The notes under the pieces: model-generated | What the model was told of the DNA's origin: nothing | The model's database searches: none | The model's input: the letters and a program-made list of their open reading frames with translations, nothing else | Source: Escherichia coli | GTDB lineage: Bacteria > Pseudomonadota > Gammaproteobacteria > Enterobacterales > Enterobacteriaceae | Strand: one strand, 5' to 3' | Length of the DNA: 64,000 bases | Assembly (NCBI RefSeq): GCF_024502345.1 | Contig: NZ_JALDNN010000001.1 | Shown: in pieces, positions 15,461 to 63,165 of the stretch | Position numbering within the stretch: position 1 is the stretch's first letter | Layout: the number at the start of each line of letters is the position of its first letter | Translations under genes and position numbers: made by a program

Positions 15461-15652
15461 ATAGTAAGCAGTGGCTCATTCACCGACTTATGTCAGCCCC
15501 TTCGGGACGTGCTACATAAAATTCGAATGACGCACAACAAGGTGCCTGCCGTCCAACTTCTGATATCAGCGTAGCTATATCAACCATCGGGCGAAACGTC
15601 GAGTTAGGCACCGCCTTATTCCATAACAAAGCCGGGTAATTCCCGGCTTTGT
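15461..15652 (+). ncRNA. glmY: Small RNA GlmY
   Basis: Sequence agtggctcattcaccgacttatgtcagcccc... recognised as GlmY; ends in hairpin gccggg-taatt-cccggc plus U-tract (15631-15653); lies between purL and glrK on the same strand. Confidence 0.8.
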
Positions 15653-27722: not shown

Positions 27723-27731
27723 CGGCAGTGT
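27723..27731. repeat. Target-site duplication, left copy (CGGCAGTGT)
   Basis: Identical 9-mer immediately flanks both IS ends. Confidence 0.9.
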
Positions 27732-28788
27732 GGCTTTGTTGAATAAATCGAACTTTTGCTGAGTTGAAGGATCAGATCACGTATCTTCCCGACAACGCAG
27801 ACCGTTCCGTGGCAAAGCAAAAGTTCAAAATCACCAACTGGCCCACCTACAATAAAGCCCTCATCAACCGTGGCTCCATAACTTTCTGGCTGGATGATGA
27901 AGCTATTCAGGCCTGGTATGAGTCAGCAACACCTTCTTCACGAGGCAGACCTCAGCGCTATTCTGACCTTGCCATCACGACTGTGCTGGTCATTAAACGC
28001 GTATTCAGGCTGACCCTGCGCGCTGCGCAGGGCTTTATTGATTCCATTTTTTCTCTGATGAACGTTCCGCTACGCTGCCCGGATTACAGCTGTGTCAGCA
28101 GGCGGGCAAAGTCGGTTAATGTCAGTTTCAAAACGCCCACCCGGGGTGAAATCGCACACCTGGTAATTGATTCCACCGGGCTGAAGGTCTTCGGTGAAGG
28201 CGAGTGGAAAGTCAAAAAGCATGGCCAGGAACGCCGCCGTATCTGGCGTAAGCTGCATCTCGCCGTTGACAGTAAAACACATGAAATCATCTGCGCTGAC
28301 CTGTCGCTGAACAACGTTACGGACTCAGAGGCCTTCCCCGGGTTAATCCGGCAAACCCACCGGAAAATCAGGTCAGCCGCCGCCGATGGCGCTTACGATA
28401 CCCGGCTATGTCACGATGAACTGCGGCGTAAGAAAATCAGCGCGCTTATCCCTCCCCGAAAAGGTGCGGGTTACTGGCCCGGTGAATATGCAGACCGTAA
28501 CCGTGCAGTGGCTAATCAGCGAATGACCGGGAGTAATGCGCGGTGGAAATGGACAACAGATTACAACCGTCGCTCGATAGCGGAAACGGCGATGTACCGG
28601 GTAAAACAGCTGTTCGGGGGTTCACTGACACTGCGTGACTACGATGGTCAGGTTGCAGAGGCTATGGCCCTGGTACGAGCGCTGAACAAAATGACGAAAG
28701 CAGGTATGCCTGAAAGCGTGCGTATTGCCTGAAAACACAACCCGCTACGGGGGAGACTTACCCGAAATCTGATTTATTCAACAAAGCC
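27732..28788 (+). mobile_element. IS903-group insertion sequence (IS5 family), 1057 bp
   Basis: 18-bp perfect terminal inverted repeats ggctttgttgaataaatc at 27732-27749 and reverse-complemented at 28771-28788; single DDE transposase ORF; flanked by 9-bp direct repeats. Confidence 0.9.
27809..28732 (+). CDS. IS903-type transposase
   Basis: Frame open from 27764; GTG at 27809 gives 307 aa, matching the remembered IS903 transposase length; true start codon uncertain. Confidence 0.8.
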   Translation: MAKQKFKITNWPTYNKALINRGSITFWLDDEAIQAWYESATPSSRGRPQRYSDLAITTVLVIKRVFRLTLRAAQGFIDSIFSLMNVPLRCPDYSCVSRRAKSVNVSFKTPTRGEIAHLVIDSTGLKVFGEGEWKVKKHGQERRRIWRKLHLAVDSKTHEIICADLSLNNVTDSEAFPGLIRQTHRKIRSAAADGAYDTRLCHDELRRKKISALIPPRKGAGYWPGEYADRNRAVANQRMTGSNARWKWTTDYNRRSIAETAMYRVKQLFGGSLTLRDYDGQVAEAMALVRALNKMTKAGMPESVRIA

Positions 28789-28797
28789 CGGCAGTGT
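28789..28797. repeat. Target-site duplication, right copy (CGGCAGTGT)
   Basis: Identical to 27723-27731. Confidence 0.9.
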
Positions 28798-46051: not shown

Positions 46052-46291
46052 TTTAACCGTCCTGTTTCGTGTTGCATCTGCGTTGACTGCACATACTCAC
46101 TCCGGTCACTTACTTATGTAAGCTCCCGGAGATTCGTAAGTTTGTCAACTTGCTGAAACCCGAAACAGTTAGGTTAAAGATAACAAGATATTAGAATCAG
46201 GCCGGGGCGTATCGCGCTCCGTAAACACGGTCGTACATCCAGCCGGTAGCCTGGTTCCTTGCATTGAGTGATGTACGGAGTTTATAGAGCA

Positions 46292-52889: not shown

Positions 52890-53666
52890 ATGTCCGAAAC
52901 AAAAAACGAACTTGAAGACCTGCTGGAAAAAGCAGCAACCGAACCGGCGCACCGCCCGGCCTTTTTCCGTACTCTACTGGAATCCACCGTCTGGGTGCCA
53001 GGTACGGCGGCGCAGGGCGAGGCTGTGGTTGAAGATAGCGCGCTTGATTTACAGCACTGGGAAAAAGAAGACGGCACCAGCGTTATTCCTTTTTTCACCT
53101 CGTTAGAAGCACTTCAACAGGCGGTTGAAGACGAACAGGCATTTGTCGTAATGCCCGTTCGCACATTGTTTGAGATGACCCTTGGCGAAACGCTCTTCCT
53201 TAATGCCAAACTGCCGACCAGTAAAGAATTTATGCCGCGTGAAATCAGTTTGTTGATTGGTGAAGAGGGAAATCCGCTGAGCAGCCAGGAAATCCTGGAA
53301 GGCGGTGAATCGCTGATATTATCGGAAGTCGCAGAGCCGCCAGCACAAATGATTGATTCACTCACCACCTTATTTAAAACTATTAAGCCGGTGAAGCGTG
53401 CTTTTATATGTTCAATTAAAGAGAACGAAGAGGCACAGCCTAATTTACTTATTGGCATTGAAGCCGATGGTGATGTCGAAGAAATTATTCAGGCGGCGGG
53501 AAGTGTAGCGACCGATACATTACCTGGCGATGAACCAATCGATATTTGTCAGGTGAAAAAAGGGGAAAAAGGAATTAGCCACTTTATTACCGAACATATT
53601 GCGCCATTCTATGAACGTCGTTGGGGTGGTTTTTTGCGTGACTTTAAACAGAACCGGATAATCTAA
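52890..53666 (+). CDS. sseB: SseB family protein (serine sensitivity enhancing B)
   Basis: 258 aa from ATG 52890 (MSETKNELEDLL); alternative GTG 52881 would add 3 aa. Confidence 0.85.
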   Translation: MSETKNELEDLLEKAATEPAHRPAFFRTLLESTVWVPGTAAQGEAVVEDSALDLQHWEKEDGTSVIPFFTSLEALQQAVEDEQAFVVMPVRTLFEMTLGETLFLNAKLPTSKEFMPREISLLIGEEGNPLSSQEILEGGESLILSEVAEPPAQMIDSLTTLFKTIKPVKRAFICSIKENEEAQPNLLIGIEADGDVEEIIQAAGSVATDTLPGDEPIDICQVKKGEKGISHFITEHIAPFYERRWGGFLRDFKQNRII

Positions 53667-53697
53667 AATATGCCGCCCCAAAGGGCGGCATTCGGGC

Positions 53698-53823
53698 TTA
53701 CCTGCTGTTCTGAAGGTTGTTAACCACCAGTAAATTGTTGCCGGAGAGACTCAGGTTATTATTTACCTCGGTTAACAGCGCACCAGAAACAATAAGTACG
53801 ATACAAAAGCACCGTATCTTCAT
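53698..53823 (-). CDS. Candidate small hydrophobic protein (41 aa), TimP-like type I toxin
   Basis: ATG at 53823 (minus) to TAA 53700-53698; translation MKIRCFCIVLIVSGALLTEVNNNLSLSGNNLLVVNNLQNSR; basic N-terminus then hydrophobic stretch; weak GGA SD; in-frame upstream ATG at 53835 also possible. Confidence 0.4.
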   Translation of the reverse strand: MKIRCFCIVLIVSGALLTEVNNNLSLSGNNLLVVNNLQNSR

Positions 53824-53886
53824 TGTGCGGTCCATGCGAAGACCGCATCACGACAGCACCACTGGCGATATTGCCGCGATAGCAAG

Positions 53887-53903
53887 CGCTGAGACGCGCT
53901 TGC
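53887..53903. repeat. 17-nt direct repeat copy A (cgctgagacgcgcttgc) within ryfA leader, embedded in palindrome agcaagcgc-tgagac-gcgcttgct
   Basis: Exact 17-mer recurs at 54047-54063. Confidence 0.85.
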
Positions 53904-54011
53904 TCTAACGGTCGCGGAACATCCTTTCCTTAAGCCAGCGCCCGCTTGCGAGACGGCGGAAAGGGCCGCAGTGGATAATACACTAACAGAACAATAATAA
54001 CTCTCTTTTGC

Positions 54012-54040
54012 TTGACAAAAAGAGAGTTACTGGCGAGTAT
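54012..54040 (+). promoter_or_regulatory. Candidate sigma70 promoter for a plus-strand small RNA
   Basis: Perfect -35 TTGACA (54012-54017), 17-nt spacer, weak -10 GAGTAT (54035-54040); sits in an 11-bp perfect palindrome aactctctttt / aaaagagagtt (53999-54029). Confidence 0.3.
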
Positions 54041-54046
54041 TGTCTC

Positions 54047-54063
54047 CGCTGAGACGCGCTTGC
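54047..54063. repeat. 17-nt direct repeat copy B (cgctgagacgcgcttgc)
   Basis: Exact match to 53887-53903. Confidence 0.85.
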
Positions 54064-54114
54064 ATTACTACGGTAATACAACCTGCTGGAAAGGCCGCGA
54101 ACCAGACCAGCAAT

Positions 54115-54142
54115 AAAAAACCGCCAAATTCGGCGGTTTTTT
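54115..54142. terminator. Bidirectional rho-independent terminator (sseA 3' end / plus-strand sRNA)
   Basis: aaaaaa-ccgcc-aaattc-ggcgg-tttttt: A-run and T-run flank the stem so it terminates in either direction. Confidence 0.7.
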
Positions 54143-54158: not shown

Positions 54159-55004
54159 TTATTTCACTGGCTCAACCGGTAAATCTGCCCGCGCGCCCCA
54201 TTCACTCCATGCGCCGTCGTACAGTTTCACGTTTGGCACATCCAGCGTCGCGAGTGCTAACAAAACCACGGCTGCCGTTACACCAGAGCCGCAGCTGACG
54301 ATAATTGGTTTGTCGTAGCTGACGCCGCGACCAAAAAATATCGCATCCAGTTCATCGGTCGTTTTTAGTTCGCCTTCGCGCACCAGTTCCGTCCACGGAA
54401 CATTCAGTGCTCCGGGAATATGTCCGCGACGTAAACCTGGGCGAGGTTCATCAACTTCTGCGTTAAAACGTGCAGCCGGGCGGGCATCAATAATTTGCGC
54501 CGTATTTTCATGGCTTGCCAATAATACATCGGTTACTTTCACCACGGCTTCAGGATTAAACGCGGCGTTAAACTCTCCTTCCGGCAGCTCTACTGCACCT
54601 TCTTCTAACAACAGATCATCGCGCTGCCAGCCTGCAAGTCCACCCCCTAGAATCGACACTTTCTCTACACCAAAGGTGCGCAGCATCCACCATGCTCGTG
54701 GGGCTGAGAAAAGATTACCTTCGTCATAGACAATCAGGTGCTTATCCTGGTTAACGCCTAATTCACGCATCGCCACGGCGAACGTTTCCGGGCGCGGCAG
54801 CATGTGCGGAAGCGGGGAAGTGTGATCAGAAAGCGCTTCGATATCAAAAAACACTGCGCCGGGAATATGTCCATTCAGATACTCCTGAGCAACGTTACGA
54901 TCCTCCTGTCCAGGCGACGCCATGCGGGCATCGATAATCTGAATTTCCGGGTCATCAATATGTTCGGCGAGCCAGTCGGCTCCTACAAACCATGTCGTGG
55001 ACAT
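54159..55004 (-). CDS. sseA: 3-mercaptopyruvate sulfurtransferase
   Basis: Start set at ATG 55004 (MSTTWFVGADWL, 281 aa); two rhodanese domains, active-site CGSGVTA. Confidence 0.9.
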   Translation of the reverse strand: MSTTWFVGADWLAEHIDDPEIQIIDARMASPGQEDRNVAQEYLNGHIPGAVFFDIEALSDHTSPLPHMLPRPETFAVAMRELGVNQDKHLIVYDEGNLFSAPRAWWMLRTFGVEKVSILGGGLAGWQRDDLLLEEGAVELPEGEFNAAFNPEAVVKVTDVLLASHENTAQIIDARPAARFNAEVDEPRPGLRRGHIPGALNVPWTELVREGELKTTDELDAIFFGRGVSYDKPIIVSCGSGVTAAVVLLALATLDVPNVKLYDGAWSEWGARADLPVEPVK

Positions 55005-55210
55005 AGGCATCTCCATTTTTGCCGGGGTTAGGCTAAATTGTCGGATGTTTAGTGAAAAGCGACAAGCAAAAGAGGCTGATTTGGCTGTCTGAGCCACAAT
55101 TCTCACTAAAATTCGGATTGTATGGGCGTGATACTGAATTACATAACGTAAATTCTCACGCATAATAATTATTCGACGTTGCTAACGGGCCATTGTGGCA
55201 GGGATGAAAA

Positions 55211-58200
55211 ATGAAAAAGTTACGCGTAGCCGCCTGCATGCTAATGCTGGCGCTGGCAGGGTGCGACAACAACGATAACGCGCCAACAGCGGTGAAAAAA
55301 GATGCGCCTTCTGAAGTTACTAAAGCGGCCTCTTCAGAAAACGCGAGTTCAGCAAAACTCTCCGCGCCAGAGCGACAAAAACTGGCACAACAGAGTGCCG
55401 GTAAGGCGCTGACATTGCTGGATCTCTCTGAAGTCCAACTTGATGGTGCAGCCACGCTGGTGCTGACGTTCTCCATCCCTCTCGACCCGGATCAGGATTT
55501 CTCACGCGTTATTCATGTCGTCGATAAAAAAAGCGGCAAAGTGGATGGTGCCTGGGAGCTATCAGATAATCTTAAAGAGCTGCGTTTACGCCACCTCGAA
55601 CCGAAACGTGATTTGATCGTTACTATTGGCAAGGAGGTCAAAGCACTCAACAACGCAACCTTCAGTAAAGATTACGAAAAAACTATAACTACCCGCGACA
55701 TCCAACCCAGCGTCGGTTTTGCCAGCCGTGGTTCGCTGCTGCCTGGTAAAGTCGTTGAAGGGCTGCCGGTAATGGCGCTCAACGTTAATAATGTCGATGT
55801 TAACTTCTTCCGCGTTAAGCCAGAATCTCTGCCAGCATTCATTAGCCAATGGGAATACCGCAATTCGCTGGCGAACTGGCAGTCAGACAAACTGCTGCAG
55901 ATGGCGGATCTGGTCTACACCGGACGGTTTGATCTCAATCCTGCGCGTAACACCCGTGAAAAATTATTGCTGCCGCTGGGCGATATCAAACCGCTTCAGC
56001 AGGCGGGCGTGTATCTGGCTGTGATGAATCAGGCTGGACGTTACGATTACAGTAATCCCGCGACGCTGTTTACGTTAAGTGATATCGGCGTTTCAGCTCA
56101 CCGTTATCACAATCGTCTGGATATCTTTACCCAAAGTCTGGAAAACGGCGCGGCCCAGCAAGGAATTGAAGTCTCTTTATTAAATGAGAAAGGGCAGACT
56201 CTGACTCAGGCAACCAGTGACGCTCAGGGGCATGTGCAGCTGGAAAATGATAAAAATGCGGCATTACTGCTGGCACGTAAAGACGGTCAGACAACGCTAC
56301 TCGATTTAAAACTTCCGGCGCTGGACTTAGCAGAATTTAACATTGCTGGCGCGCCAGGCTATAGCAAACAGTTTTTCATGTTTGGCCCGCGCGATCTTTA
56401 TCGCCCGGGTGAAACGGTCATCCTCAATGGTTTGCTGCGTGATGCAGACGGTAAAGCGTTGCCCGATCAACCCATCAAGTTAGACGTGATTAAACCCGAC
56501 GGGCAGGTTCTCAGGAGCGTCGTTAGTCAGCCGGAGAATGGCCTCTACCACTTAACCTGGCCACTCGATAGCAATGCGGCAACCGGTATGTGGCATATCC
56601 GAGCCAACACTGGGGATAACCAATATCGGATGTGGGATTTCCACGTCGAAGATTTTATGCCGGAGCGCATGGCGTTGAATCTGACCGGCGAGAAAACGCC
56701 ATTAACGCCAAAAGATGAAGTGAAATTCTCGGTGGTGGGGTACTACCTGTACGGTGCACCTGCTAATGGTAATACCTTGCAGGGACAGCTTTTCCTGCGG
56801 CCGCTGCGTGAAGCGGTTTCTGCATTGCCTGGTTTTGAATTCGGCGATATAGCTGCCGAAAACCTTTCCCGCACGCTGGATGAAGTTCAGTTGACGCTGG
56901 ATGATAAAGGGCGCGGCGAAGTTTCTACAGAAAGCCAGTGGAAGGAAACGCATTCCCCATTGCAGGTTATTTTCCAGGGCAGTTTGCTGGAATCGGGCGG
57001 TCGCCCGGTGACGCGCCGCGCTGAGCAGGCTATCTGGCCTGCCGATGCATTGCCGGGGATCCGTCCGCAGTTCGCCTCGAAATCGGTTTACGATTATCGT
57101 ACTGACAGCACGGTGAAACAGCCCATTGTTGATGAAGGCAGTAACGCCGCTTTTGACATCGTTTATAGCGATGCGCAAGGCGTGAAAAAAGCCGTGTCGG
57201 GCTTGCAGGTGCGCCTGATTCGCGAACGCCGCGATTACTACTGGAACTGGTCAGAAGATGAAGGCTGGCAGTCACAGTTTGATCAAAAAGATCTGATCGA
57301 AAATGAACAAACTCTGGATCTGAAAGCGGACGAAACCGGCAAGGTCAGTTTTCCGGTAGAGTGGGGCGCTTATCGTCTGGAAGTCAAAGCGCCGAATGAA
57401 GCGGTCAGTAGTGTTCGTTTCTGGGCTGGCTATAGCTGGCAGGACAACAGCGACGGTAGCGGCGCAGTGCGACCCGACCGTGTCACGCTGAAACTGGATA
57501 AAGCCAGTTATCGCCCTGGCGACACCATTAAGTTGCATATCGCCGCGCCAACGGCGGGTAAAGGTTATGCGATGGTCGAGTCCAGTGAAGGGCCGCTGTG
57601 GTGGCAAGAGATTGATGTTCGGGCTCAAGGGCTGGATCTGACGATTCCGGTCGATAAAACCTGGAATCGTCATGATCTGTATTTAAGTACGCTGGTGGTA
57701 CGTCCTGGCGATAAATCTCGCTCCGCGACGCCAAAACGCGCGGTTGGTGTGTTGCATCTGCCGCTTGGCGATGAAAACCGTCGCCTCGATCTGGCGCTGG
57801 AAACACCAGCAAAAATGCGTCCCAATCAACCATTAACCGTGAAAATTAAAGCCAGCACTAAAAATGGCGAGAAGCCTAAACAGGTGAATGTGCTGGTGTC
57901 TGCCGTTGATAGTGGTGTGCTGAATATTACTGACTACGTCACGCCAGATCCGTGGCAGGCGTTCTTTGGTCAGAAACGCTATGGCGCAGACATTTACGAT
58001 ATTTACGGTCAGGTTATTGAAGGTCAGGGGCGTCTGGCAGCTCTGCGTTTCGGTGGCGATGGTGATGAGCTGAAACGTGGTGGTAAACCGCCGGTCAATC
58101 ACGTCAATATTGTCGCGCAGCAGGCGCTGCCGGTAACGCTCAACGAACAGGGCGAAGGCTCGGTTACACTGCCGATTGGCGATTTTAACGGTGAATTGCG

Positions 58201-60169
58201 CGTCATGGCGCAAGCCTGGACGGCAGATGATTTCGGTAGCAACGAAAGCAAAGTGATAGTTGCCGCACCGGTGATTGCTGAACTGAACATGCCGCGCTTT
58301 ATGGCGAGTGGCGATACCTCGCGTCTGACGCTGGATATCACTAATCTTACCGATAAACCGCAAAAACTGAACGTTGCCCTGACCGCCAGTGGTTTGCTTG
58401 AACTGGTCAGCGATTCACCCGCAGCCGTTGAATTAGCGCCAGGTGTGCGTACTACGCTGTTTATCCCGGTGCGAGCATTGCCGGGTTATGGCGATGGAGA
58501 AATTCAGGCCACCATTAGCGGGTTAGCGTTACCGGGTGAAACCGTTGCCGATCAGCATAAGCAGTGGAAAATCGGCGTCCGTCCGGCGTTCCCGGCACAA
58601 ACGGTTAATTACGGTACGGCGTTACAGCCTGGTGAGACATGGGCGATTCCGGCGGATGGATTGCAAAACTTCTCGCCTGTTACGCTGGAAGGGCAATTGT
58701 TGTTGAGCGGCAAACCACCGCTGAACATTGCACGTTATATCAAAGAGTTAAAAGCGTATCCGTACGGCTGTCTTGAGCAAACCGCCAGCGGCCTGTTCCC
58801 GTCACTTTATACCAACGCAGCCCAACTGCAGGCGTTGGGCATCAAAGGCGACAGTGATGAGAAACGCCGTGCATCGGTCGATATCGGCATTTCCCGTTTG
58901 CTGCAAATGCAACGTGATAACGGCGGCTTTGCGCTGTGGGATAAAAACGGTGACGAAGAGTACTGGCTGACGGCTTACGTGCTGGATTTCCTGGTCCGCG
59001 CAGGCGAACAGGGTTACAGCGTGCCGACAGACGCCATTAACCGGGGTAATGAGCGTCTGCTGCGCTATTTACAAGATCCGGGCATGATGTCGATCCCGTA
59101 CGCGGATAATCTCAAAGCCAGTAAATTCGCCGTACAGTCTTACGCTGCGCTGGTGCTGGCCCGTCAGCAAAAAGCACCACTGGGTGCGCTGCGTGAAATC
59201 TGGGAGCATCGTGCAGATGCCGCTTCTGGTTTACCGCTGCTGCAACTTGGCGTTGCGCTGAAAACCATGGGTGATGCGACGCGTGGTGAAGAATCGATTG
59301 CGCTGGCGCTGAAAACGCCGCGTAATGATGAGCTGAAATGGCTGGGTGATTACGGTAGCCCACTGCGCGACAACGCGTTAATGCTCTCCTTGCTGGAAGA
59401 AAATAAACTGCTACCCGATGAGCAGAACACTTTGCTGAACACGCTTTCGCAGCAGGCATTTGGTGAACGCTGGCTATCGACGCAGGAAAGTAACGCGTTG
59501 TTCCTGGCTGCCCGTACGATTCAGGATTTACCGGGTAAATGGCAGGCGCAAACCTCTTTCTCAGCTGAGCCGCTGACAGGCGAGAAAACGCTAAACAGCA
59601 ATCTGAATAGCGATCAACTTGCCACCTTGCAGGTGAGAAACAGTGGCGATCAGCCGTTATGGCTGCGTGTGGATGCCAGCGGTTATCCGCAATCCGCACC
59701 TTTACCGGCGAACAATGTGCTGCAAATCGAGCGTCATATTCTTGGTACTGATGGTAAGAGCAAATCGCTGGACTCGTTACGTAGCGGCGATCTGGTGCTG
59801 GTCTGGTTGCAGGTAAAAGCCAGTAACAGCGTGCCGGATGCGTTAGTCGTGGATCTGCTGCCTGCGGGTCTGGAACTGGAAAACCAGAATCTGGCGAACG
59901 GTAGCGCCAGCCTGGAGCAAAGTGGTGGCGAAGTGCAGAACTTACTGAACCAGATGCAGCAGGCGAGTATTAAGCACATTGAGTTCCGTGACGATCGCTT
60001 TGTGGCGGCGGTTGCCGTTGATGAATACCAACCGGTAACGCTGGTGTATCTGGCGCGGGCGGTGACGCCGGGAACGTATCAGGTACCGCAACCGATGGTG
60101 GAATCAATGTATGTTCCCCAATGGCGGGCGACCGGCGCGGCTGAAGATTTGCTGATTGTCAGACCGTAA
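55211..60169 (+). CDS. yfhM: Alpha-2-macroglobulin family lipoprotein (ECAM)
   Basis: 1652-aa ORF; lipobox LALAGC at N-terminus; thioester motif CLEQ (GCLEQTA) and MG domains. Confidence 0.9.
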   Translation: MKKLRVAACMLMLALAGCDNNDNAPTAVKKDAPSEVTKAASSENASSAKLSAPERQKLAQQSAGKALTLLDLSEVQLDGAATLVLTFSIPLDPDQDFSRVIHVVDKKSGKVDGAWELSDNLKELRLRHLEPKRDLIVTIGKEVKALNNATFSKDYEKTITTRDIQPSVGFASRGSLLPGKVVEGLPVMALNVNNVDVNFFRVKPESLPAFISQWEYRNSLANWQSDKLLQMADLVYTGRFDLNPARNTREKLLLPLGDIKPLQQAGVYLAVMNQAGRYDYSNPATLFTLSDIGVSAHRYHNRLDIFTQSLENGAAQQGIEVSLLNEKGQTLTQATSDAQGHVQLENDKNAALLLARKDGQTTLLDLKLPALDLAEFNIAGAPGYSKQFFMFGPRDLYRPGETVILNGLLRDADGKALPDQPIKLDVIKPDGQVLRSVVSQPENGLYHLTWPLDSNAATGMWHIRANTGDNQYRMWDFHVEDFMPERMALNLTGEKTPLTPKDEVKFSVVGYYLYGAPANGNTLQGQLFLRPLREAVSALPGFEFGDIAAENLSRTLDEVQLTLDDKGRGEVSTESQWKETHSPLQVIFQGSLLESGGRPVTRRAEQAIWPADALPGIRPQFASKSVYDYRTDSTVKQPIVDEGSNAAFDIVYSDAQGVKKAVSGLQVRLIRERRDYYWNWSEDEGWQSQFDQKDLIENEQTLDLKADETGKVSFPVEWGAYRLEVKAPNEAVSSVRFWAGYSWQDNSDGSGAVRPDRVTLKLDKASYRPGDTIKLHIAAPTAGKGYAMVESSEGPLWWQEIDVRAQGLDLTIPVDKTWNRHDLYLSTLVVRPGDKSRSATPKRAVGVLHLPLGDENRRLDLALETPAKMRPNQPLTVKIKASTKNGEKPKQVNVLVSAVDSGVLNITDYVTPDPWQAFFGQKRYGADIYDIYGQVIEGQGRLAALRFGGDGDELKRGGKPPVNHVNIVAQQALPVTLNEQGEGSVTLPIGDFNGELRVMAQAWTADDFGSNESKVIVAAPVIAELNMPRFMASGDTSRLTLDITNLTDKPQKLNVALTASGLLELVSDSPAAVELAPGVRTTLFIPVRALPGYGDGEIQATISGLALPGETVADQHKQWKIGVRPAFPAQTVNYGTALQPGETWAIPADGLQNFSPVTLEGQLLLSGKPPLNIARYIKELKAYPYGCLEQTASGLFPSLYTNAAQLQALGIKGDSDEKRRASVDIGISRLLQMQRDNGGFALWDKNGDEEYWLTAYVLDFLVRAGEQGYSVPTDAINRGNERLLRYLQDPGMMSIPYADNLKASKFAVQSYAALVLARQQKAPLGALREIWEHRADAASGLPLLQLGVALKTMGDATRGEESIALALKTPRNDELKWLGDYGSPLRDNALMLSLLEENKLLPDEQNTLLNTLSQQAFGERWLSTQESNALFLAARTIQDLPGKWQAQTSFSAEPLTGEKTLNSNLNSDQLATLQVRNSGDQPLWLRVDASGYPQSAPLPANNVLQIERHILGTDGKSKSLDSLRSGDLVLVWLQVKASNSVPDALVVDLLPAGLELENQNLANGSASLEQSGGEVQNLLNQMQQASIKHIEFRDDRFVAAVAVDEYQPVTLVYLARAVTPGTYQVPQPMVESMYVPQWRATGAAEDLLIVRP

Positions 60170-62482
60170 ATGCCTCGCTTGTTAACCAAACGCGGCTGCT
60201 GGATAACGCTGGCAGCTGCGCCATTTCTCCTTTTTCTTGCAGCGTGGGGAGCAGATAAACTCTGGCCTCTACCGCTGCATGAAGTCAATCCCGCACGAGT
60301 GGTCGTGGCGCAGGATGGTACGCCGCTCTGGCGCTTCGCCGATGCTGACGGCATCTGGCGTTATCCTGTAACAATCGAAGATGTTTCTCCTCGTTACCTT
60401 GAAGCGCTGATCAATTATGAAGATCGCTGGTTCTGGAAGCATCCTGGGGTGAATCCATTCTCGGTGGCGCGCGCAGCATGGCAAGATTTCACTTCGGGAC
60501 GGGTTATTTCCGGTGGCAGCACGCTCACTATGCAGGTTGCTCGTCTGCTTGATCCTCACCCCAAAACATTTGGCGGCAAAATTCGCCAGCTCTGGCGCGC
60601 GTTGCAACTGGAGTGGCATTTGTCTAAGCGTGAAATTCTGACCTTGTATCTTAACCGCGCTCCGTTTGGCGGTACGTTGCAGGGGATCGGTGCGGCAAGT
60701 TGGGCTTATCTCGGAAAGTCGCCTGCGAATTTAAGCTATTCCGAGGCGGCAATGCTGGCGGTTTTGCCGCAAGCGCCCAGCCGTCTTCGCCCGGATCGTT
60801 GGCCGGAGCGTGCCGAAGCCGCGCGTAATAAAGTGCTCGAACGGATGGCCGTGCAAGGTGTGTGGTCCCGTGAGCAGGTAAAAGAGTCAAGGGAAGAACC
60901 CATCTGGCTGGCACCCCGACAAATGCCGCAACTTGCACCGCTGTTTTCGCGCATGATGCTCGGTAAAAGCAAAAGCGACAAAATCGTTACTACGCTGGAT
61001 GCCGGTCTTCAACGACGTCTGGAAGAACTGGCGCAAAACTGGAAAGGACGTTTACCACCGCGCAGCTCACTGGCGATGATCGTGGTTGATCATACCGATA
61101 TACGTGTTCGCGGCTGGGTGGGATCGGTAGATCTCAACGATGATTCACGCTTTGGTCATGTTGATATGGTCAATGCGATCCGATCGCCAGGATCGGTGCT
61201 CAAACCGTTTGTTTATGGTCTGGCGCTGGATGAAGGCTTGATCCACCCGGCATCACTGCTGCAAGACGTCCCCCGGCGCACCGGTGATTATCGACCAGGT
61301 AACTTTGATAGCGGTTTTCATGGCCCGATCAGCATGAGCGAGGCGCTGGTGCGCTCGCTGAACTTACCTGCTGTGCAGGTGCTGGAAGCCTATGGACCGA
61401 AACGGTTTGCGGCAAAGTTACGCAATGTTGGATTGCCGTTATATTTGCCCAACGGTGCGGCGCCGAATCTTTCGCTCATTCTCGGCGGCGCTGGTGCAAA
61501 ACTGGAAGATATGGCGGCAGCGTATACCGCGTTTGCTCGCCACGGCAAGGCAGGCAAATTGCGCTTACAGCCTGACGATCCGCTGCTTGAACGGCCTTTA
61601 ATGTCGTCGGGGGCTGCGTGGATCATTCGCCGGATTATGGCTGATGAAGCGCAACCCTTGCCGGATGGTGCCTTGCCGCGCGTCGCCCCACTGGCATGGA
61701 AAACGGGCACCAGCTATGGCTATCGTGACGCCTGGGCGATTGGGGTTAACGCTCGCTATGTCATTGGGATCTGGACTGGCAGACCGGACGGCACGCCCGT
61801 TGTTGGTCAGTTTGGCTTTGCCAGTGCCGTACCATTGTTGAATCAGGTCAATAATATCTTACTGTCGCGCAGTGCTAATCTGCCGGAAGACCCGCGCCCG
61901 AACTCAGTCACTCGTGGCGTTATTTGCTGGCCGGGCGGACAGTCTTTGCCGGAAGGTGACGGTAACTGTCGCCGCCGCCTGGCAACCTGGCTGCTGGACG
62001 GGAGTCAGCCGCCAACTCTATTACTGCCGGAGCAGGAAGGCATTAATGGCATTCGTTTCCCCATCTGGCTGGATGAAAATGGCAAACGTGTTGCCGCTGA
62101 TTGCCCGCAAGCGCGACATGAAATGATAAATGTCTGGCCGCTACCGCTGGAACCCTGGTTGCCCGCATCAGAACGTCGCGCTGTGCGCTTACCACCGGCC
62201 TCGACAAGTTGCCCGCCATACGGTCACGATGCCCAGCTCCCGCTGCAGCTGACAGGCGTTCGCGATGGCGCGATTATTAAACGTTTACCGGGCGCAGCGG
62301 AAGCGACTTTGCCGTTGCAATCAAGTGGAGGGGCAGGTGAACGCTGGTGGTTTCTGAATGGCGAACCGTTAACTGAACGCGGGCGCAACGTGACCCTGCA
62401 TTTGACGGATAAAGGTGATTATCAATTGCTGGTGATGGATGACGTGGGGCAAATCGCGACAGTGAAATTTGTCATGCAATAG
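60170..62482 (+). CDS. pbpC: Penicillin-binding protein 1C (transglycosylase)
   Basis: 770 aa; ATG immediately follows yfhM stop; GT51 glycosyltransferase motifs and transpeptidase-like domain. Confidence 0.9.
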   Translation: MPRLLTKRGCWITLAAAPFLLFLAAWGADKLWPLPLHEVNPARVVVAQDGTPLWRFADADGIWRYPVTIEDVSPRYLEALINYEDRWFWKHPGVNPFSVARAAWQDFTSGRVISGGSTLTMQVARLLDPHPKTFGGKIRQLWRALQLEWHLSKREILTLYLNRAPFGGTLQGIGAASWAYLGKSPANLSYSEAAMLAVLPQAPSRLRPDRWPERAEAARNKVLERMAVQGVWSREQVKESREEPIWLAPRQMPQLAPLFSRMMLGKSKSDKIVTTLDAGLQRRLEELAQNWKGRLPPRSSLAMIVVDHTDIRVRGWVGSVDLNDDSRFGHVDMVNAIRSPGSVLKPFVYGLALDEGLIHPASLLQDVPRRTGDYRPGNFDSGFHGPISMSEALVRSLNLPAVQVLEAYGPKRFAAKLRNVGLPLYLPNGAAPNLSLILGGAGAKLEDMAAAYTAFARHGKAGKLRLQPDDPLLERPLMSSGAAWIIRRIMADEAQPLPDGALPRVAPLAWKTGTSYGYRDAWAIGVNARYVIGIWTGRPDGTPVVGQFGFASAVPLLNQVNNILLSRSANLPEDPRPNSVTRGVICWPGGQSLPEGDGNCRRRLATWLLDGSQPPTLLLPEQEGINGIRFPIWLDENGKRVAADCPQARHEMINVWPLPLEPWLPASERRAVRLPPASTSCPPYGHDAQLPLQLTGVRDGAIIKRLPGAAEATLPLQSSGGAGERWWFLNGEPLTERGRNVTLHLTDKGDYQLLVMDDVGQIATVKFVMQ

Positions 62483-62568
62483 TCTGTTTTGTCCCTGATT
62501 GTTGCTAAAACTCATTTTATTTTAAAAAAATGTTACCTTCATCAATAGTCAACGGCCCTGTTGCTCAT

Positions 62569-62574
62569 TATAAT
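62569..62574 (+). promoter_or_regulatory. Candidate ndk -10 hexamer
   Basis: Perfect TATAAT 57 nt upstream of ndk ATG; -35 weak (tagtca). Confidence 0.35.
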
Positions 62575-62630
62575 CCGCGCCATCTCGTACGCTGGTACAG
62601 ACAACAACAGAACAATTTACAGAGGTAAAA

Positions 62631-63062
62631 ATGGCTATTGAACGTACTTTTTCCATCATCAAACCGAACGCGGTAGCAAAAAACGTCATTGGTAATATCT
62701 TTGCGCGCTTTGAAGCTGCAGGGTTCAAAATTGTCGGCACCAAAATGCTGCACCTGACCGTTGAACAGGCACGTGGCTTTTATGCTGAACACGATGGAAA
62801 ACCGTTCTTTGATGGTCTGGTTGAATTCATGACCTCTGGCCCGATCGTGGTTTCCGTGCTGGAAGGTGAAAACGCCGTTCAGCGTCACCGCGATCTGCTG
62901 GGCGCGACCAATCCGGCAAACGCACTGGCTGGTACTCTGCGCGCTGATTACGCTGACAGCCTGACCGAAAACGGTACCCACGGTTCTGATTCCGTCGAAT
63001 CTGCCGCTCGCGAAATCGCTTATTTCTTTGGCGAAGGCGAAGTGTGCCCGCGCACCCGTTAA
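62631..63062 (+). CDS. ndk: Nucleoside diphosphate kinase
   Basis: 143 aa [15 protein letters not shown]; active-site His region NGTHGSDS. Confidence 0.96.
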
Positions 63063-63122: not shown

Positions 63123-63165
63123 CGCCCCCGGACGAGCAGCCGCTCACCGGGGCGTTTCTTTTTTC
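63123..63165 (+). terminator. Possible attenuating hairpin/terminator between ndk and rlmN
   Basis: GC-rich imperfect stem (cccccgg ... ccgggg) followed by tttcttttttc; long loop lowers confidence. Confidence 0.35.

Follow-up and report, generated by a model that had tools for sequence, protein, structure and literature searches.

The yfhM-pbpC gene pair and its junction

The window analysed here is a stretch of 64,000 nucleotides (nt) of Escherichia coli DNA (RefSeq assembly GCF_024502345.1, contig NZ_JALDNN010000001.1), and the present work concerns a pair of genes that it carries, yfhM and pbpC, coding for an alpha-2-macroglobulin lipoprotein known as ECAM and for PBP1C (penicillin-binding protein 1C), respectively. 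In a program-made list of open reading frames (ORFs) the pair appears as two adjoining ORFs of the + strand, of 1652 and 770 amino acids (aa), both starting with ATG (Table 1). ORFs of this size with full-length family matches cannot be due to chance. The local order of genes is sseA (divergent), yfhM, pbpC, ndk and rlmN, and it is the same in K-12 and in other E. coli. Direct reading of the junction, cagaccgTAAATGcctcgc, places the TAA of yfhM at 60167-60169 and the ATG of pbpC at 60170-60172, so that the abutment described in an earlier note, which was made from the sequence alone, is exact to the base in the ORF list as well as in the sequence. The two genes lie in one reading frame (4959 = 3 x 1653), with this TAA as the sole separator. 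Both are intact, as that note had also stated, being full length with respect to K-12 and having every motif present.

Table 1. Positions of the yfhM and pbpC genes, of the protein segments that they encode and of the flanking signals (all positions are those of the window)
Feature	Position	Strand	Basis and remarks
Sigma-70-like promoter candidate ATTACA-17-CATAAT (9/12)	55138..55166	+	Consensus scan; in the sseA/yfhM divergent spacer, 45 nt before the yfhM ATG
yfhM coding sequence	55211..60169	+	Alpha-2-macroglobulin lipoprotein (ECAM), 1652 aa plus TAA; ORF, Pfam, K-12 identity, PDB
Lipoprotein signal peptide, MKKLRVAACMLMLALAGC	55211..55264	+	Lipobox LAGC with Cys18; regular expression L[ASTVI][GAS]C, residues 15-18
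Bait-region core, RYGADIYDIYGQVIEGQGRL	57977..58036	+	Residues 923-942; protease-sensitive disordered segment by the numbering of PMC4498604
Thioester motif G-C-L-E-Q	58766..58780	+	Cys1187...Gln1190; found in GGCTGTCTTGAGCAA
C-terminal macroglobulin-domain motifs RDDR and ESMY	59987..60112	+	Residues 1593-1596 and 1631-1634; motif search
Predicted RNA hairpin	60122..60184	+	Last ~45 nt of yfhM paired with first ~15 nt of pbpC; AUG inside
Stop/start junction TAAATG	60167..60172	+	Spacer of 0 nt; both genes in one frame
pbpC coding sequence	60170..62482	+	Penicillin-binding protein 1C, 770 aa plus TAG; ORF, NCBIfam, K-12 identity
N-terminal membrane anchor, CWITLAAAPFLLFLAAWGA	60197..60253	+	Residues 10-28; best 19-aa Kyte-Doolittle window, mean 1.79; hydropathy reading
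GT51 domain	60350..60847	+	Pfam Transgly, residues 61-226, 176 bits; EDRWF 84-88, GGSTLTMQ 115-122, KREIL 153-157
Transpeptidase-type domain	61160..61726	+	Pfam Transpeptidase, residues 331-519, 45.9 bits; SVLK 342-345, SLN 396-398, KTG 511-513
BiPBP_C C-terminal domain	62228..62470	+	PF06832, residues 687-767, 63.9 bits; hallmark of PBP1C-type enzymes
pbpC-ndk spacer, downstream boundary	62483..62630	+	148 nt; holds an ndk promoter match at 62546-62574, TAGTCA-17-TATAAT (10/12)

Signals for transcription and translation at the junction

No terminator-like hairpin of the + strand was found between yfhM and pbpC or in the 148 nt after pbpC, the first such site coming past ndk, at 63141-63154. 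The predicted duplex with the anti-Shine-Dalgarno sequence is -3.2 kcal/mol for pbpC, compared with -8.1 kcal/mol for yfhM and -7.2 kcal/mol for ndk, and the median for random positions of the window is -4.0 kcal/mol. pbpC thus has no recognisable Shine-Dalgarno (SD) sequence, its match being no better than that of a random position, which fits translational coupling without being a proof of it. Since the spacer is 0 nt long and both an intergenic terminator and an SD for pbpC are lacking, these features favour co-transcription and coupling, and the two genes are probably co-transcribed and translationally coupled by termination-reinitiation, the latter because the SD-less AUG directly follows the yfhM stop codon. 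The earlier note had considered the pair as almost certainly co-translated as an operon. The abutment indeed argues for co-transcription and is compatible with coupling, but "co-translated" is the wrong term.

Seven sigma-70-like matches are present in the scanned region, a number not above that of shuffled sequences (6.0 +/- 2.4), and for this reason the match upstream of yfhM (Table 1) is regarded as a candidate promoter only. At the junction itself, a 120-nt segment (60110-60229) is predicted to fold with a minimum free energy of -48.5 kcal/mol (z = -3.29), and none of 200 shuffled sequences is as stable.

YfhM is a type I alpha-2-macroglobulin

Eleven macroglobulin-related Pfam families (bMG1, A2M_bMG2, bMG3, MG2, bMG5, bMG6, A2M_BRD, A2M, TED_complement, CUB_A2MG and bMG10) are found above their gathering cut-offs in YfhM, in the expected order over residues 59-1637. 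The domain search that had been proposed as a check of the annotation therefore recovers the macroglobulin (MG) domains, the bait-region domain, TED and CUB in YfhM, together with GT51, transpeptidase and BiPBP_C domains in PbpC. No model of NCBIfam matched YfhM, a gap of this library that was not counted against the assignment. In the Protein Data Bank (PDB), YfhM scores 3638 bits to 4RTD ("lipoprotein YfhM"); along its whole length it is nearly identical to the ECAM structures solved for E. coli (4RTD, 4ZIQ and 5A42), and also to Salmonella 4U48. The protein is 98.9% identical to K-12 b2520 and has one codon fewer, the K-12 Ser at alignment position 1372 being absent, as it is in strain H1, the closest E. 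coli record. Thirteen of the 17 substitutions are located between residues 1258 and 1487, and no difference from K-12 falls in the lipobox, in the bait region 923-942 (the nearest being at residue 969), or in CLEQ, RDDR and ESMY.

The two motifs that the earlier note had read in YfhM are present. The lipobox LALAGC occupies residues 13-18 of the translation (MLMLALAGCDNN, codons 55247-55264), by direct reading and by regular expression, and the thioester motif GCLEQ occupies residues 1186-1190, with CLEQ at 1187-1190 (YPYGCLEQTASG). Residue +2 after the lipobox Cys18 is Asp, the classical inner-membrane retention residue at this position of lipoproteins. Anchoring of ECAM in the inner membrane is described in the literature, as are the disorder of Arg923-Leu942 in elastase-cleaved ECAM, the thioester formed by Cys1187 and Gln1190, with a numbering equal to that of CLEQ in YfhM of the window, and the RDDR and ESMY motifs, which clamp TED or the cleaved bait region (PMC4498604). 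With the lipobox Cys, CxEQ, the MG/TED/CUB order, RDDR/ExMY and the adjacency to pbpC all present, YfhM is clearly, as far as its sequence can tell, a type I bacterial alpha-2-macroglobulin. For K-12 ECAM, a reactive thioester and the covalent trapping of proteases have been shown (PMC4498604, PMC3328433, PMC3735191), elastase being among the proteases that it traps in vitro (PMC4498604, PMC3735191), and from the high identity to this protein we infer that YfhM of the window would share the thioester reactivity and the covalent trapping of proteases.

PbpC is a penicillin-binding protein 1C

PbpC scores over its full length with the NCBIfam equivalog NF008414 PbpC (1564 bits, cut-off 1121) and with TIGR02073 PBP_1c (914.7 bits, cut-off 494.2), and is 99.2% identical to K-12 b2519, with six substitutions that affect no catalytic or defining motif. 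The GT51 motif set (EDxxFxxHxG, GxSTxTxQ and KxEIL) is present, and the SxxK, SxN and KTG set is complete, pointing to a putative transpeptidase. Judged by its equivalog scores, GT51 domain, transpeptidase motifs, BiPBP_C domain and predicted single anchor, the second ORF is PBP1C; a single-span anchor has been described for PBP1c (PMC3328433). No PBP1C structure is present in the PDB copy searched, where PbpC matches only PBP1A and PBP1B relatives. Among its homologues, a PbpC-like protein of 903 aa from an ENA assembly (P0063), 95% identical over 93% of the query, has no BiPBP_C Pfam match recorded; it may result from a frameshift or from an erroneous gene call.

The locus in E. coli genomes

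The window is collinear with positions 2,643,495-2,706,808 of K-12, reverse strand, at 98.4-99.0% identity. Of 5426 complete E. coli genomes, 5425 match a 7.7-kb query that spans both genes, on the chromosome every time, and a 400-nt query over the junction also has a match in 5425 of them. The latter replaced a 42-nt junction query that matched in 4355 of the 5426 genomes, a count that is unreadable as junction loss because megablast requires an exact word of 28 nt. Annotation from the Prokaryotic Genome Annotation Pipeline (PGAP) gives the abutment in all five inspected records that keep both genes; the records inspected include H1, K-12 MG1655 (b2520/b2519), strain MEW and the divergent allele H60. 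The latter is 91.5% identical over the 400 nt surrounding the junction, and CCGTAAATGCC is unchanged in it despite this 8.5% divergence. In 72 kb of inspected collinear K-12 annotation, yfhM/pbpC is the sole exact 0-nt abutment, the other compact same-strand pairs (rnc/era, hcaE/F, hcaC/B, rseB/C, pdxJ/acpS, rseA/B and glrR/qseG) overlapping by 4, 1 or 11 nt.

In the 400-nt junction segment O157:H7 strains match the window at 100% identity, and 1109 E. coli genomes are only 90-95% identical to the window in this segment. With respect to K-12, yfhM shows blocks of divergence at nt 1201-1800 (~94% identity) and 3901-4500 (~96%), other stretches being 100% identical, and the allelic changes in the two genes are mainly synonymous, with protein identities of 98-99%. 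The alleles of this locus in E. coli form a mosaic, which suggests recombination. Among the complete E. coli genomes of RefSeq, identity to the window does not exceed 99.0-99.1%, as tested on positions 30000-54000 (24 kb) and 55000-62700 (7.7 kb). The window probably stems from a lineage not represented among them, perhaps, as a guess, a Shigella close to the O157:H7 clade.

Junction geometry across species

A first homologue search gave just close Citrobacter relatives, at 86% identity, and the diversity of the PbpC alignment (40 sequences) was supplied by a search for representatives, which are 31-59% identical to the query. This alignment was used to scan one genome per species, yielding 79 species-level PbpC loci, nearly all from Proteobacteria (gamma, beta, alpha and delta) with a few from other phyla, and with Salmonella absent. 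For each locus the macroglobulin ORF was located by BLASTP against YfhM of the window and the start codons in the pbpC frame were listed, the assignment of the start codon being approximate in the wider gaps.

A macroglobulin C-terminus is present upstream of pbpC on the same strand in 71 of the 79 loci and lies at most 260 nt away in 59, and in 30 of these 59 adjacent loci, which belong to distant clades, a start codon is available between -4 and +12 nt relative to the stop of the macroglobulin gene. The exact 0-nt TAAATG was found in Escherichia albertii and two Citrobacter species only. The junction is +1 in Enterobacter-like genomes and Superficieibacter, +3 in Mangrovibacter and -1 in Stenotrophomonas ginsengisoli, a gap of ~50-60 nt is present in Yersinia and Photorhabdus, and eleven loci, mostly of Bradyrhizobium, Afipia and Pseudolabrys, plus Andreprevotia, show a -4 overlap of the ATGA or GTGA type. 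Linkage of the macroglobulin gene to pbpC is therefore widely conserved and tight junctions recur, whereas the 0-nt geometry is a trait of Escherichia and Citrobacter. The earlier note had proposed to check the conservation of the 0-nt spacing in other genomes, and the outcome is that this spacing is not a property of the module as a whole. The numbers of linked, adjacent and tightly spaced loci, together with the eleven overlaps in distant lineages, indicate that the linkage is under selection.

In five Bradyrhizobium/Afipia loci (L066, L068, L070, L078 and L079; region about 25 nt ahead of the macroglobulin stop) an SD-like GAGGUG lies within the macroglobulin coding sequence, 13-17 nt upstream, with predicted duplexes of -9.6 to -11.8 kcal/mol. 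The ATGA/GTGA junctions of these genera thus carry a strong SD-like site, whereas the Escherichia junction is SD-less.

Proposed function and alternative explanations

We consider it very likely that the locus is the chromosomal yfhM-pbpC pair of an Escherichia/Shigella-type genome, coding for ECAM and PBP1C; the two genes would probably share a transcript and be translationally coupled. YfhM would be exported and lipidated at Cys18, its tether to the inner membrane being taken from published work (PMC4498604). A protease entering the periplasm would cut the disordered bait region, around residues 923-942 according to published ECAM work, whereupon the C-terminal MG domain would let go of the thioester domain, so that the Cys1187-Gln1190 thioester could link covalently to the protease as the molecule closes round it. 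Such a mechanism of bait cleavage and thioester release has been solved structurally for ECAM (PMC4498604). PbpC is a class A penicillin-binding protein with a single predicted span in the inner membrane; it has a glycan-polymerising GT51 domain as well as the transpeptidase-like and BiPBP_C domains. Both genes would be transcribed jointly from a promoter in the sseA-yfhM spacer, and most translation of pbpC would be due to ribosomes coming straight from termination at the yfhM stop, tying the output of PBP1C to that of ECAM. The joint role would be the neutralisation of proteases and the repair of peptidoglycan once the outer membrane is breached, and a role of this kind, combining protease inhibition and cell-wall repair, was proposed by Budd et al. 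2004, as related in passages of PMC4498604 and PMC3328433.

Several points weigh against this account. That ECAM and PBP1C function as partners is still put forward as a proposal (PMC3328433, PMC4498604). E. coli NCTC9100 keeps yfhM and is devoid of pbpC and ndk, rlmN lying 176 nt after yfhM with the first 19 nt of pbpC left (NZ_LR134239.1, 1238640-1238815), the sole case in the 5426 genomes. Seven Pseudomonas have a spacer of 400-750 nt without a Pfam-recognisable ORF, Xanthomonas arboricola has two unrelated genes, one for a TonB-dependent receptor and one for a GDPD phosphodiesterase, inserted between that of the macroglobulin and pbpC (locus L030, 1611-6794), and one gammaproteobacterial metagenome-assembled genome shows the reversed order, pbpC then macroglobulin, 163 nt apart (locus L023, 6899-14420), all of which indicates that tight coupling is dispensable for the module. 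Moreover, the SD strength does not differ between tight and wide junctions (medians of -5.0 and -6.5 kcal/mol, Mann-Whitney p = 0.96, 64 loci), although the comparison is weak, the choice of the start codon being uncertain in wide-gap loci. The idea that tight junctions would be devoid of an SD and wide junctions would have one was rejected on this result, and loss of the SD is no general correlate of tight spacing. Finally, the junction hairpin has a consensus of merely -3.6 kcal/mol across 10 enterobacterial junctions (RNAalifold) and is not conserved outside Escherichia; with this near-zero consensus a conserved RNA structure at the junction was rejected, and the hairpin is kept as a weak prediction specific to E. 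coli.

Some of these observations also bear on another explanation, which we hold to be rather unlikely, namely that the genes share a transcript without being coupled, the 0-nt junction being a neutral product of streamlining in Escherichia and Citrobacter and pbpC being initiated de novo (SD-independent or by standby binding) or expressed from an internal promoter. Such compaction would agree with the lineage-specific spacing (0, +1, +3, ~50-60 and 400-750 nt), with the likeness of tight and wide junctions in SD strength, with the lack of conservation of the hairpin, and with a sigma-E site within yfhM that is listed from systematic evolution of ligands by exponential enrichment (SELEX) (PMC5493296). 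However, the SD of pbpC does not rise above background whereas those of its neighbours do, no promoter-like site scoring 9/12 or better was found on the + strand in the 3' part of yfhM, junctions of -4 to +12 nt recur in 30 of the 59 adjacent loci, in clades far apart, and the junction has stayed unchanged in the diverged H60 allele. A much stronger version of coupling, which we regard as doubtful, would have PBP1C synthesis in Escherichia obligatorily slaved to the translation of ECAM, because an SD is lacking, the AUG abuts the stop and the hairpin would be opened only by terminating ribosomes. The recurrent tight junctions would then result from selection for the co-production, at a fixed ratio, of two proteins joined in a physical complex at the inner membrane, and not from a shared regulon alone, and the different junctions of distant lineages (0, +1, -1, and -4 ATGA with the embedded GAGGUG in Bradyrhizobium/Afipia) would reflect such selection.

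The linkage may also have a reason that does not lie in defence plus repair. Endogenous proteases, periplasmic or secreted, could be under the control of ECAM, a complex of the two proteins could protect or regulate PBP1C, or the pair could be a horizontally transferred cassette, and we think this improbable. In its favour, a direct interaction of PBP1c with the C-terminal region of ECAM has been suggested (PMC3328433), the literature gives the defence-repair role as proposed only, proteobacteria of widely differing classes carry the pair, with a varying content between the two genes, and NCTC9100 has lost pbpC while keeping yfhM. On the other hand, ECAM traps exogenous proteases such as elastase in vitro, and the fixed core-genome position of the pair, in 5425 of 5426 E. 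coli genomes, is not cassette-like. Lastly, the same frame, the single stop codon and the absence of a spacer raise the question of readthrough of the in-frame TAA, which would occasionally yield a YfhM-PbpC fusion protein with a function of its own, and 15 further loci (L005, L006, L010, L025, L031, L038, L042-L044, L048, L061, L069, L073, L075 and L082) likewise keep both genes in one frame without a second in-frame stop separating them. Yet termination in E. coli is most efficient at TAA, the genes are in different frames or overlap in most lineages, no fused protein is present among the homologues listed, and the topology is implausible, the N-terminus of PbpC being cytoplasmic and the C-terminus of YfhM periplasmic. 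On the grounds of topology, stop-codon strength and a frame that is not conserved, readthrough was rejected as extremely improbable.

Other features of the window

Compared with K-12, a 1057-bp insertion at 27732-28788 interrupts yphF, the gene for a periplasmic binding protein of an ABC transporter. Its ends are inverted repeats (GGCTTTGTTGAATAAATCG), it contains an ORF for a transposase of 322 aa (27764-28732), and a 9-bp target duplication (CGGCAGTGT) occupies the flanks 27723-27731 and 28789-28797. By these repeats, transposase and target duplication it is an IS903-type element of the IS5 family. An IS5-family element in this part of yphF occurs in one of the 5426 complete E. coli genomes, and several others have IS1 in yphF. 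A second segment absent from K-12, of ~127 bp (46053-46179), directly follows the stop codon of iscR and is itself closely followed by the iscRS stability element (Rfam, 46181-46290), and its core, CACTTACTTATGTAAGCTCCCGGAGATTC, presumably resembles the enterobacterial repetitive intergenic consensus (ERIC)/intergenic repeat unit (IRU).

The small RNA (sRNA) ryfA was identified on the minus strand at 53665-54142 (Rfam, 314 bits); K-12 has a ~321-bp tandem duplication in the ryfA/timR/timP region, and the window a single copy. Further Rfam matches at or above the gathering threshold are the rncO leader (2586-2800), the antitoxin sRNA ohsC on the minus strand beside shoB (6213-6289) and the sRNA GlmY (15470-15617), all three located where synteny with K-12 predicts.

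Comparison with known systems

The genes, the ECAM structures, the adjacency and the defence-plus-repair hypothesis are all known from earlier publications, and the locus belongs to the core genome of E. coli. The earlier note had treated the macroglobulin and PBP1C as a known module, which agrees with the literature, where they are described as a frequent operon (PMC4498604, PMC3328433, PMC3735191), and with the wide conservation of the linkage found here; bacterial alpha-2-macroglobulins of the CxEQ class are usually encoded beside pbpC (PMC3328433, PMC3735191). What the present analysis adds is that pbpC is devoid of an SD and that the 0-nt junction has a limited taxonomic range. In addition, the module is confirmed as intact in a genome that carries insertion sequences and is at least 1% divergent from all complete E. 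coli of RefSeq, and the comparison of species indicates that the linkage of macroglobulin and pbpC is conserved far more widely than any one geometry of the junction.

The closest known system is the K-12 pair yfhM (b2520)-pbpC (b2519), which is flanked by the same genes (divergent sseA; ndk, rlmN and rodZ downstream) and has the same TAAATG, the same motifs and the same bait region; at the protein level it differs from the pair of the window by the missing YfhM codon and by the 17 and 6 substitutions in YfhM and PbpC. SaA2M of Salmonella enterica (4U48), an orthologue from another genus, is also of type I and has the same domain order, residues 18-1652 of YfhM aligning at 3052 bits, and its thioester is shielded by the C-terminal MG domain (PMC4498604). 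Type II proteins, represented by Pseudomonas aeruginosa MagD and the E. coli YfaS class, share the MG superfamily fold and are likewise periplasmic and associated with the inner membrane; however, MagD has neither the lipobox Cys nor CxEQ and is encoded in the six-gene magABCDEF operon, not beside pbpC (PMC3735191). YfhM of the window has all three type I features that are missing in MagD, and is not of type II because the lipobox Cys, CxEQ and the adjacency to pbpC are all present. Similarly, PbpC has the GT51 and transpeptidase domains in common with PBP1A and PBP1B (mrcA and mrcB), scoring 188 bits to 4OON (PBP1A) and 104 bits to 5FGZ (PBP1B), but does not come near the equivalog cut-offs of MrcA (182 vs 1263) and MrcB (174 vs 718) and carries BiPBP_C, whereas PBP1A and PBP1B carry the ODD and UB2H regulatory domains.

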